Translations under genes and position numbers: made by a program
Source: Escherichia phage PhiR46_1
DNA length: 46,290 nucleotides
Reading direction: 5' to 3' (one strand)
Sequence record: PV340565.1
The notes under the pieces: generated by a model
Databases searched by the model: none
The model's input: the letters and a program-made list of their open reading frames with translations, nothing else
Told to the model about the DNA's origin: nothing
Shown: piece after piece, positions 17,793-19,780 of the stretch
Position numbering within the stretch: the first letter of the stretch is position 1
Layout of the letters: each line of letters starts with the position of its first letter

Positions 17793-17810
17793 GTGCGACC
17801 GTGGTCGCAC
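17793..17810. promoter_or_regulatory. sopC-like centromere palindrome (copy 3)
   Basis: GTGCGACC-GT-GGTCGCAC, immediately left of direct-repeat copy A. Confidence 0.6.
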
Positions 17811-17820
17811 ATTAAATACC

Positions 17821-17996
17821 GCGCTGCATCGTCGCCGTATTTCCGCATTAACCATGACCGTAGCCCGACGGGGAACTCCTCTGCGCGAGTGTGCGGAAAT
17901 AATCAAAAACGATGCACACCGGGTTTTTACCGCGCTAATGATTCGCGGGTTTGTCCCTCATGCTCGCCAGTCCTGTGCGAGGGTGGAAGAAACAGG
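17821..17996. repeat. Direct repeat copy A (about 175 bp)
   Basis: Nearly identical over roughly the first 110 bp to 19604-19780, then diverging (GCGCTGCATCGTCGCCGTATTTCCGCATTAACCATGACCGTAGCCCGACGGGGAA...). Confidence 0.8.
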
Positions 17997-18012
17997 GCAT
18001 GTATTCAGGAGC

Positions 18013-18030
18013 GTGCGACCGTGGTCGCAC
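18013..18030. promoter_or_regulatory. sopC-like centromere palindrome (copy 4)
   Basis: GTGCGACC-GT-GGTCGCAC, immediately right of repeat copy A and 24 bp upstream of the cassette gene. Confidence 0.6.
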
Positions 18031-18053
18031 GGTATCTTTGTCAGGAGGTTTTG

Positions 18054-18914
18054 ATGAAAGAGTTGCAAAAAATTAATTCAATAATGGAAAGATTAAGTGC
18101 TCTTGAGCGTAAGCTGGACGATTGTGGAAAGCTGTGTGTTGAAAAGCAAAATGAGCTTTACCGGGAATTTTTTACAATCGTAAGTGAGCTGATGCCAATT
18201 GTTAATAACTGCCTGATGACATCCAGATTTTTTAATGTCGATGCTACTACATCCAGAAAATTTTCTGTGAAAATTCAAGAAAGAGTTTCTGGTAGTGTGA
18301 CAAGAGAGATGGCTGAACAGTTGGTGGCAATGAGCAATAAAACAAAAAGAAAAAAGGCATTGCTTGTAACAGCAAATCAGCTTTCAGGGCGCGTTGACTT
18401 TCAGGTCAGACAGGGTGGGCGTGTACTGGTAAATGATGCGTTCGTTGGACGTAGCTTTAGTCCTTACTCGATAAAATATGATGTTGATGCAGATGATCAG
18501 GATATCAGCATTTCCTGGAAATCTGAGACAGCAGGGATTGTATTAACAGCAGAGTTGTTGAGTGATGATAAAAATGATGTCCAGCATCATTTGGACGAAA
18601 AGAATCATATTTCTGAAATTTGTATGAAGCCACGCAGCGGAATGACTTTATTGTCACGCACTCTTGCTGCTGGTTTTTCTGCACCGGAAAAACGTGTGCT
18701 TCTGGTAGTGCCTGAAGATGCAGATATTCGACCACTGAATGGCTGTGATGTTATTAGTGCAAAAACATTGCATACCCGCGTCATTCCTGTACCGGATGTG
18801 GTCATTATTGATGATGTTGAGAAATGCAAGTCTGTTTCCTCAACTGCCACAATCAAGCGAATTTTACGTTGTAGCACGTCGGCTGTTGTATTCCGGAAGC
18901 AGTTACATAACTAA
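18054..18914 (+). CDS. Hypothetical protein (286 aa) of AT-rich cassette; no recognisable domain
   Basis: ATG at 18054 with AGGAGG 6 nt upstream. The ORF track's 17793 start runs through the repeat and is unlikely. N-terminal coiled-coil-like segment. Confidence 0.6.
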   Translation: MKELQKINSIMERLSALERKLDDCGKLCVEKQNELYREFFTIVSELMPIVNNCLMTSRFFNVDATTSRKFSVKIQERVSGSVTREMAEQLVAMSNKTKRKKALLVTANQLSGRVDFQVRQGGRVLVNDAFVGRSFSPYSIKYDVDADDQDISISWKSETAGIVLTAELLSDDKNDVQHHLDEKNHISEICMKPRSGMTLLSRTLAAGFSAPEKRVLLVVPEDADIRPLNGCDVISAKTLHTRVIPVPDVVIIDDVEKCKSVSSTATIKRILRCSTSAVVFRKQLHN

Positions 18915-19037
18915 CCAGTTTTGTTTTGCAGAACATCCTCAACTAAAAGCTTATAGAAAGAGAGCCTGAGATATTTTTTCTGTCTCTCGTAGTTGTTTAT
19001 TTTTCTCGAACAGGCTTACAACTTACAGGATATAAAC

Positions 19038-19487
19038 ATGCAAGAAGAAGCAAATAAAATTCTTGTTGATTTATTGAAGAAGGCCAGCGATGGAATTGAT
19101 TCCGCCATTGCATTCAGCCAGGCTCAGATTCCGGATGTTGTTCATCAGTTGCTGGTATGGAATATGGTTGATAGCCTGATTAAAACATTAATAGCCATTT
19201 CAACAATCCCGCTGGTTTTCTGGTTTATGAAAAAACAGTACCAAAAAGTTGAAATTGGTATATTCGATAATGAAGGATGGTCATGGGAGAAGGGAAAGCC
19301 TAAATACAAACCGACTATGATTTGGGAAAGTAACGGTGAGATTAGTTTTCTTATCTTACCATTAGCAGCAGTTTTTGTTCTGTGGGTAAGTTTTATTATT
19401 GCTGTAGTAACCAATATGACATGGTTAAAAATCTGGTTGGCACCTAAGTTATATCTAATCGAATACGCAGCATCACTAATTAAATAG
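19038..19487 (+). CDS. Hypothetical membrane protein (about 149 aa, two predicted transmembrane helices) of AT-rich cassette
   Basis: ATG at 19038 with AGGA upstream; the ORF track start at 18993 is a TTG. Hydrophobic stretches LIKTLIAISTIPLVFWFM and ISFLILPLAAVFVLWVSFIIAVV. Confidence 0.55.
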   Translation: MQEEANKILVDLLKKASDGIDSAIAFSQAQIPDVVHQLLVWNMVDSLIKTLIAISTIPLVFWFMKKQYQKVEIGIFDNEGWSWEKGKPKYKPTMIWESNGEISFLILPLAAVFVLWVSFIIAVVTNMTWLKIWLAPKLYLIEYAASLIK

Positions 19488-19603
19488 TCCATTACAAAAG
19501 CCATTCGCTACTGAGTGGCTTTGATAATGGCTTATACCCTGCACGGGATAACTTAACTGATATCCCTTTTAACGGATAAAGGTATTCAAGCCTGACACAT
19601 CAT

Positions 19604-19780
19604 GCGCTGCATCGTCGCCGTATTTCCGCATTAACCATGACCGTAGCCCGACGGGGAATTCCTTCTGCGCGAGTGTGCGTAAATAATCAAAAACGATGCA
19701 CACCGGGTTTTTACCGCGTTTATGGTGCGCGGTTTTGTCCCTCATAGTCGCCCGTCCGGTGCGATGGTGGAAGAAGCTGG
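19604..19780. repeat. Direct repeat copy B (about 175 bp), about 65 bp upstream of cosN
   Basis: See copy A. Confidence 0.8.

Follow-up and report, generated by a model that had tools for sequence, protein, structure and literature searches.

Escherichia phage PhiR46_1 (sequence record PV340565.1; all 46,290 nt of it, read on one strand, are referred to here as the window) carries two open reading frames (ORFs), ORF1 and ORF2, between its lysis genes and cos, with a direct repeat on either side of this cassette. Our comparisons indicate that the repeats are two copies of one discrete element of ~180 nt that normally occurs singly in lambdoid phages. The explanation that we favour, with a probability of roughly 0.7, is that the region is a mosaic in which this element, likely an RNA, has been duplicated beside separable accessory genes. 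We would not file the cassette as a candidate two-gene defence system: ORF2 is best viewed as a phage membrane protein, early or late, of wide distribution, and ORF1 as an enlarged representative of an unstudied post-Rz family. The repeat unit is the more interesting result, as it is sharply bounded and present in hundreds of lambdoid phages, including lambda, without having an Rfam entry. If our reading is true, the best-studied phage contains an RNA that has escaped annotation, and a functional sequence doubles as a recombination joint in mosaic evolution. The features of the region are as follows.

17793-17810, no strand: pal1, predicted resident N15-type SopB site, equivalent to IR4; exact 18-bp palindrome matching N15 inverted repeats IR1-IR4 and published IR oligonucleotides
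17816-18004, plus strand: element copy A; covariance model score 206.9 bits, 3' half of the mEp460 subtype
18013-18030, no strand: pal2, predicted second N15-type SopB site; exact palindrome, 23 nt before the start codon of ORF1, travels with ORF1
18054-18914, plus strand: ORF1, 286 amino acids, cytoplasmic; AGGAGG 5 nt before the ATG, phrog_2571, unknown function
19038-19487, plus strand: ORF2, 149 amino acids, predicted two-pass membrane protein; phrog_3054, unknown function
19599-19788, plus strand: element copy B, adjoining cosQ; covariance model score 211.1 bits

The repeat unit as a shared lambdoid element

The direct repeat consists of a 60-nt block (17821-17880 versus 19604-19663, 98% identity) and a 128-nt block (17880-18007 versus 19664-19791, 86% identity), with a 1-nt indel between them. 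The 5' parts of the two copies are near-identical, while their 3' halves differ in subtype, being mEp460-like in copy A and of the Stx1717 type in copy B. A BLAST search with positions 19482-19800 found the element in ~490 phage records, and most matches started at 19602-19603 and stopped at about 19781-19783, irrespective of the neighbouring genes. Because these boundaries are constant whatever the flanks, the repeat unit is a discrete shared element and was not produced by this particular insertion event.

We built a covariance model from 46 non-redundant copies, and it gave exactly two matches in the window, both on the plus strand, and a single match in lambda (46864-47039, between bor and lambdap78), in the DLP12 prophage of K-12 MG1655 (579005-579181, between borD and ybcV) and in each of 434, mEp460 and several Stx phages. 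The element is unannotated in both lambda and DLP12, and the model found no match in N15 or phi80. Wherever the locus is annotated, the lysis genes are on one side of the element and the packaging genes on the other, all in the same direction, and this placement is kept whether the packaging module is lambda-type Nu1/A, HNH plus TerS or pac-type TerS. Scanning genomes by species for a 17-base core returned mostly chance matches outside Escherichia and added little diversity.

An earlier reading of this DNA, made from the sequence only, had described an AT-rich cassette bracketed by direct repeats, with sopC-like palindromes flanking copy A, and had proposed looking for relatives with a single repeat copy and no cassette. 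The repeats and the palindromes, which match the N15 SopB sites IR1-IR4, both stand, as does the base composition (windowed GC content of 0.35-0.44 over ORF1 and ORF2 versus 0.47-0.55 in the flanks). A close relative with one copy and no cassette was also found, and the cassette is not conserved in all relatives. The idea that the repeats are the brackets or ends of the cassette does not hold, as they are instead copies of an element that is common to lambdoid phages.

Layouts in relatives and a proposed origin

Mapping of the element, palindromes and ORFs onto related genomes distinguished five layouts. In layout (a), represented by plasmid pZ1323HEC0355-3, the order is DUF4406, one palindrome, one element and cos; this region is exactly 1784 bp shorter than that of the window, pal1 is the sole palindrome retained, and the single element is a hybrid whose left part is A-like and whose right part is B-like. 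Layout (b) is the arrangement of the window, with two elements, ORF1 and ORF2; the Escherichia coli plasmids NZ_CP101200 and NZ_CP101226 are 100% identical to it over the repeat-cassette region. Layout (c) lacks window positions 18639-19464 (826 bp, with a 7-nt overlap at the joint), which truncates ORF1 and removes ORF2, and the identical deletion is found in at least four E. coli plasmids as well as in phage YDC107_1 and one IMG/VR contig. Layout (d), from the TUM1886 chromosomal prophage, starts with a truncated HNH gene and a degenerate palindrome, which are followed by ORF1, ORF2, the element, ylcI and cos. Layout (e), from chromosomal prophages without ORF2, has the element followed by an intact palindrome, a full or truncated ORF1 and cos. 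Among related plasmids in PLSDB, 17 have the full region, two have the full region with a different cos side, four carry the 826-bp deletion, one is covered over 55% and two are empty. As these counts favour the full region (17 full versus two empty), the empty forms are more likely derived deletions.

From these layouts we infer a parental crossover. The region would be a recombination mosaic, sited where an N15-like plasmid-prophage has its accessory slot between lysis genes and cos, with the element, common to many phages, serving as a patch of homology. In one parent, DUF4406 would have been followed by a SopB site, the element and cos; in the other, an element and a SopB site would have preceded ORF1, ORF2, a further element and cos. 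Crossing over within the element, between a genome of type (a) and one of type (e) or (d), would then give the layout of the window together with its doubled SopB site, and recombination between copies A and B would remove the cassette again and leave a hybrid single copy, as in layout (a).

Predicted SopB sites around copy A

The 18-mer palindrome GTGCGACCGTGGTCGCAC occurs exactly at 17793-17810, 18013-18030, 10374 and 14753, and with one mismatch at 7931, giving five sites in the window where 0.04 are expected from shuffled sequence. N15 has four SopB sites, at 33479, 35930, 41124 and 45561, and the palindromes of both the window and N15 agree with the published SopB-binding IR1-IR4 oligonucleotides (PMC7205306, Table 4). 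The window sites share the palindrome core GTGCGACC-NN-GGTCGCAC with N15 IR1-IR4 and have the same relative positions, and cognate sopA and sopB genes are present on this replicon too. Flanking sequence identifies the sites at 7931, 10374 and 14753 as equivalents of IR1-IR3. In N15, IR4 is flanked by genes 58 and 59, which is a relative place equal to that of both 17793 and 18013. The palindromes are thus predicted to be N15-type SopB centromere sites. The new point is that the IR4-equivalent is duplicated, its two versions lying 220 bp apart around element copy A, which gives a predicted five sites rather than the four of N15. Such a duplication would be an example of cargo exchange altering centromere number.

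An intact N15-type palindrome is also found upstream of ORF1 homologues in chromosomal lambdoid prophages (locus L140, 1805-1822; locus L141, about 4961-4978). In the TUM1886 prophage (locus L009, 5001-5018), the palindrome is degenerate and forms the junction with the truncated HNH endonuclease gene. No sop genes were among those called in the examined stretches of the chromosomal prophages that bear both the palindrome and ORF1.

Covariation in the element

The following helices were assigned, given here in copy B coordinates.

19609-19615/19693-19699, plus strand: helix H1
19621-19628/19678-19685, plus strand: helix H2
19629-19632/19672-19675, plus strand: helix H3
19642-19646/19665-19669, plus strand: helix H3b
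19647-19649/19654-19656, plus strand: helix H4
about 19714-19718/19728-19732, plus strand: helix H5
19756-19760/19776-19780, plus strand: helix H6

In a MAFFT alignment, 98.5% of cells in five helices can pair, a value that falls to 37-51% when the partner strand is slid by 1-3 columns. A second, model-fitted alignment gave 97% pairing versus 34-58% with slid partners. In that alignment, changes on both sides affect 11 of 37 pairs (3.4 ± 1.2 in shuffles) and 30 further pair types are seen (23.2 in shuffles), and in neither case did any of 500 shuffles reach the observed value. Because the search pattern of the first sample fixed many of the 3' partners, a further sample of copies was anchored on the H6 loop. 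In it, the first pair of H1 also changes from G-C to A-U, H2 shows G-C becoming G-U, and H3 shows C-G becoming U-A. The H6 helix of copy A is itself a compensated variant, with CCTG/CAGG in place of CCGG/CCGG, and the H5 hairpin is kept with unrelated stems (CCGCG/CGCGG, CUGUG/CGCAG, CUCAUUU/GAGAUGGGAG and GCCGCGCG/CGGGCGCGG). Variation within the helices takes the form of C or U opposite G and of G or A opposite U, and the helices contain 130 G-U cells versus three A-C cells; pairing is therefore kept on the plus strand only.

As the helices covary and pairing is strand-specific, we consider it likely that the element is a structured RNA within the late transcript. It had no match to Rfam 15 at gathering score, nor any at E ≤ 10 over either copy. 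A search of the accessible literature for an RNA at this position returned only small RNAs (sRNAs) near PR', namely the anti-sRNAs and Pas sRNAs, which are distinct from the element. That the element is both a real RNA and undescribed is somewhat less likely than its being an RNA. A role in the processing or stability of late mRNA is our guess.

The alternative that fares best is that the repeat has spread recently and is neutral, being a boundary sequence or gene remnant which provides only homology for recombination and has no RNA function. We rate this as unlikely, although it would fit the folding result and narrow host range described below, as well as the absence of the element from N15 and phi80, which makes it dispensable. 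It does not readily explain why variation is limited to loops and to C/U opposite G and G/A opposite U, with the excess of G-U over A-C cells, or why 11 compensated pairs are seen where 3.4 are expected. Nor does it account for the retention of the H5 hairpin with at least four unrelated stem sequences and for the identical limits of the element in phages with differing flanking genes.

Conserved module-boundary ('linker') sequences have been proposed for lambdoid phage mosaicism, and the CUS-3 record contains an annotated 'boundary sequence' feature that invites comparison with the element. Like such linkers, the element is a short conserved stretch at a module junction that joins varied neighbours. 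It differs from them in its RNA-type covariation and strand specificity, which suggest a function beyond homology.

Several observations weigh against a mosaic built on a duplicated RNA element. Folded as a single sequence, the element reaches an energy no better than that of shuffles (z = -0.05 for the plus and +0.12 for the minus strand). The sampling is biased, given that the 3' partners in the first sample were often fixed by its search pattern and that the second alignment, which was model-fitted, leans to structure. The element is also almost confined to Escherichia phages, so the sequences are closely related and the shuffle control may overstate covariation. In terms of the proposed origin, a perfect palindrome before ORF1 in prophages without sop genes would have a chance survival of ~5% at 85% identity, and insertion into an empty site leaves the same sequence pattern as deletion from a full one, so the direction of change is undecided.

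ORF1 and ORF2 as separable accessory genes

ORF1 is predicted to contain an N-terminal coiled coil, a central beta domain (residues 101-169) and a small C-terminal alpha/beta domain, in which PRSGMT and VVIIDDVE were read as degenerate Walker A and B motifs. It has no match in Pfam, NCBIfam or PADLOC-DB 2.0. An exhaustive phmmer search of 1.84 billion representatives returned one full-length cluster, fragments and two distant partial matches, and full-length relatives (≥ 80% identity) are found only in Escherichia prophages, at the slot between the lysis genes and cos. Its AlphaFold2 (AF2) model was too poor to use (mean predicted local distance difference test score, pLDDT, of 52). Profile searches against PDB sequences had a single hit, of the ORF1 C-terminus to the nucleoside triphosphatase P4 of cystoviruses; this agrees with the degenerate Walker-like motifs, but at a non-significant E of 0.26 we do not treat it as evidence.

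A profile of ORF1 residues 95-195 retrieves a family of 69-79-amino-acid proteins, a short form of phrog_2571 whose gene overlaps the Rz stop codon in many E. coli and Salmonella prophages. Residues 101-169 (window positions 18354-18560) are 44% identical to 74-amino-acid post-Rz proteins, and P0154 of this family aligns at 44% identity (E = 4e-15). In several prophages the post-Rz gene is followed by a TonB_C-like gene, ylcI, HNH and the terminase genes. The small post-Rz proteins occupy the same slot and the late strand, as does ORF1, but ORF1 has an additional N-terminal coiled coil and C-terminal domain and shows no translational coupling to Rz. Because its central domain matches these proteins native to the same slot, ORF1 is predicted to be an enlarged member of their family. 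A distant ORF1 relative from E. coli, P0145 (181 amino acids), has its beta domain first and a coiled coil similar to the ORF1 N-terminus at its C-terminus; its domain order is therefore permuted in relation to ORF1.

The family alignment and AF2 model of ORF2 (mean pLDDT 69; no BFVD structure match at E < 2) feature two membrane helices, together with an amphipathic N-terminus and a C-terminal helix that are both conserved. There was no match to Pfam or NCBIfam, and PADLOC-DB 2.0 gave only an unrelated endonuclease model at E = 0.049. The family, phrog_3054, spans 177 phage records, including virulent rV5-like and Vibrio phages and temperate P22-like or lambdoid phages. In Oslo, HF4s, CUS-3, HK633 and Escherichia albertii prophages, its gene immediately follows gene N within the early-left operon, beside ral, sieB and cIII, and the E. 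albertii relatives are 90% identical to ORF2. The family thus comprises widespread phage membrane proteins whose usual site is just after gene N.

ORF1 occurs without ORF2 in the chromosomal prophage loci L141 and L142, and ORF2 occurs without ORF1 in early operons and virulent phages. Between the window and TUM1886, ORF1 has only three synonymous differences, whereas ORF2 is about 10% diverged (synonymous divergence, dS, of 0.18); a recombination breakpoint therefore lies between the genes (18914-19038), which have had separate histories. The ratio of nonsynonymous to synonymous divergence (dN/dS) is 0.24 for ORF1 against an 86%-identical homologue and 0.10-0.17 for ORF2, indicating purifying selection on both genes. 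Comparative data thus show two real accessory genes under selection, which can occur apart and do not form a coupled system.

The sequence-only reading had placed two ORFs without recognisable domains in a moron slot and had paired a soluble with a membrane protein. Both ORFs are present, lack any Pfam, NCBIfam or PADLOC family, and occupy variable cargo space between the lysis genes and cos, where N15 carries different genes (gp56, the gp58 methylase and gp59). The two transmembrane helices of ORF2 fit its alignment and model. The pairing was not borne out, given that ORF1 is found alone in prophages and ORF2 alone after gene N and in virulent phages. Neither protein matched a known virion, lysis or defence family, and the central domain of ORF1 is related to the post-Rz proteins.

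We regard it as distinctly unlikely that the cassette is a two-gene prophage defence module for superinfection exclusion or abortive infection, with ORF1 as a soluble sensor or effector and ORF2 as its membrane partner. Defence genes are documented in the slot ahead of the packaging genes, a hotspot that in phi80 holds the Tai/Ati tail-assembly-inhibition defence (PMC11364771), and the cassette is AT-rich, intact in most close plasmid relatives and under purifying selection. The genes are, however, separable, which is the reason for disfavouring a paired module: ORF1 is found without ORF2, relatives 90% identical to ORF2 lie after gene N, the ORF2 family extends to virulent phages, and the two genes differ in their divergence histories. 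Deleted and truncated versions are also frequent, and there are no matches to PADLOC, Pfam or NCBIfam and no similarity to Tai/Ati. A promoter scan, which can miss weak promoters as it relies on a consensus, found nothing upstream of ORF1, and its sole match on the plus strand (19033-19060) overlaps with the start of ORF2. The two genes share the orientation of the late genes and follow the late operon, unlike typical prophage-expressed exclusion genes.

Tai/Ati resembles the cassette in comprising two genes in the same slot before the packaging genes, but differs in that Tai (205 amino acids) and Ati (77 amino acids) are divergently transcribed, whereas ORF1 and ORF2 are co-directional and found apart. 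BLASTP at E < 10 yielded no alignment of ORF1 or ORF2 to TaiEcA (orf63) or AtiEcA (orf64), and neither has homology to phi80 orf66 or N15 gp59. The position of the cassette is that of the lambdoid moron slot (bor, ybcV, ybcW and ylcI in lambda; gp56-gp59 in N15; rha, tai, ati and orf66 in phi80), with which it shares content that varies among close relatives and a GC content below that of the flanks. Like other moron cargo, the cassette can be dispensed with, as natural deletions show. Classical morons such as bor and tai have their own promoter and often run in the opposite direction, whereas ORF1 and ORF2 follow the late operon. The cassette is best described as ordinary accessory cargo at a known hotspot.

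A terminator scan of the cassette region flagged only the palindrome (pal2, as a terminator-like hairpin) and the H5 hairpin of the element. With low confidence, we suggest that ORF1 and ORF2 are probably expressed on the Q-dependent late transcript, that SopB bound at 17793 and 18013 may dampen their expression in the lysogen, and that the inner membrane is the probable site of action of ORF2 in lytic growth, by analogy with its relatives in early operons elsewhere. A more extensive proposal combines an undescribed lambdoid family of late-transcript RNAs at the lysis/packaging junction, with a part in the processing, stability or expression of late mRNA and acting also as a patch for cargo swaps, with ORF1 and/or ORF2 as genes for competition between phages that are silenced by SopB; we offer this combination tentatively, as somewhat more likely to be wrong than right.

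Coding capacity of the repeat and other accounts

The repeat unit could instead be a gene for a small minus-strand protein (a 58-amino-acid ORF at 19569-19745, possibly YlcI/YnfO-like) of which copy A is a pseudogene. A similar peptide, encoded by an ORF of 44-58 amino acids, recurs in a subset of copies and is called as a gene in some records, and the copy A frame has a stop codon and a frameshift, as a pseudogene might. This account is nevertheless very improbable. The frame is broken in lambda, Stx-phage subtypes, copy A and many others, no frame is conserved, and the variable columns of the element are split 12/17/17 over the codon phases, with no third-position excess or three-base periodicity. 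The 58-amino-acid ORF has no Pfam or NCBIfam match, whereas the YlcI-like protein of lambda matches DUF3950 and NF041551, and the real ylcI is a separate gene next door. An assignment of the repeat as a ylcI-like gene was rejected on the lack of a DUF3950 match, the broken frames and the absence of codon periodicity. We also rejected a 373-amino-acid ORF (17793-18914), which starts at a GTG within pal1 and runs through copy A into ORF1, as an artefact, given the strong ribosome binding site before 18054 and the homologues of ORF1.

A transposon-like mobile element with the repeats as its ends or target-site duplication is extremely improbable: although the genes are bracketed by direct repeats, no transposase, integrase or recombinase gene lies between them, hundreds of phages already carry a lone copy of the repeat unit, the two copies are of different 3'-half subtypes, and the limits of the cassette vary by locus.

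Replicon and neighbouring features

The window encodes homologues of N15 SopA (93% identity), SopB (76%) and protelomerase (TelN, 77%), as well as RepA, CB and Q. The telomere palindrome CCATTATACGCGCGTATAATGG, which has an N15-type core, is found at both ends of the window (1-22 and 46269-46290), and the closest phage record is the Ravinvirus YDC107_1. Together, the N15-type replication, partition and protelomerase homologues, the telomere palindromes and this best match identify the window as a complete N15-like (Ravinvirus) linear plasmid-prophage, from telL to telR. Further features are listed below.

ending at 17420: lysis genes
17462-17773, plus strand: DUF4406 gene, homologue of N15 gp57 and left neighbour of the cassette region; Pfam DUF4406 E = 3.7e-34, 83% identity to N15 gp57
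19489-19580, no strand: separate conserved unit with a hairpin at 19497-19522, independent of the 180-nt element
about 19793-19809, plus strand: cosQ, from alignment to the lambda right end and both N15 ends
19846-19857, plus strand: cosN, 12-nt cohesive end GGGCGGAAGGCG, from the same alignment
starting at 20035: Nu1
43736-45822: sopA and sopB, with products 93% and 76% identical to N15 SopA and SopB

The unit at 19489-19580 has 87-97% matches in HK544, mEp235, Emek and others. Its hairpin (19497-19522), read from the sequence, is followed by a T-run on the minus strand and looks like a terminator for leftward transcripts, although it was not flagged by the terminator scan. Elsewhere in the window, Rfam matches on the minus strand at 2759-2948 correspond to C4 antisense RNA (82 bits) and an adjoining isrK-like RNA (53 bits), which presumably form a control region for secondary immunity or the anti-repressor.

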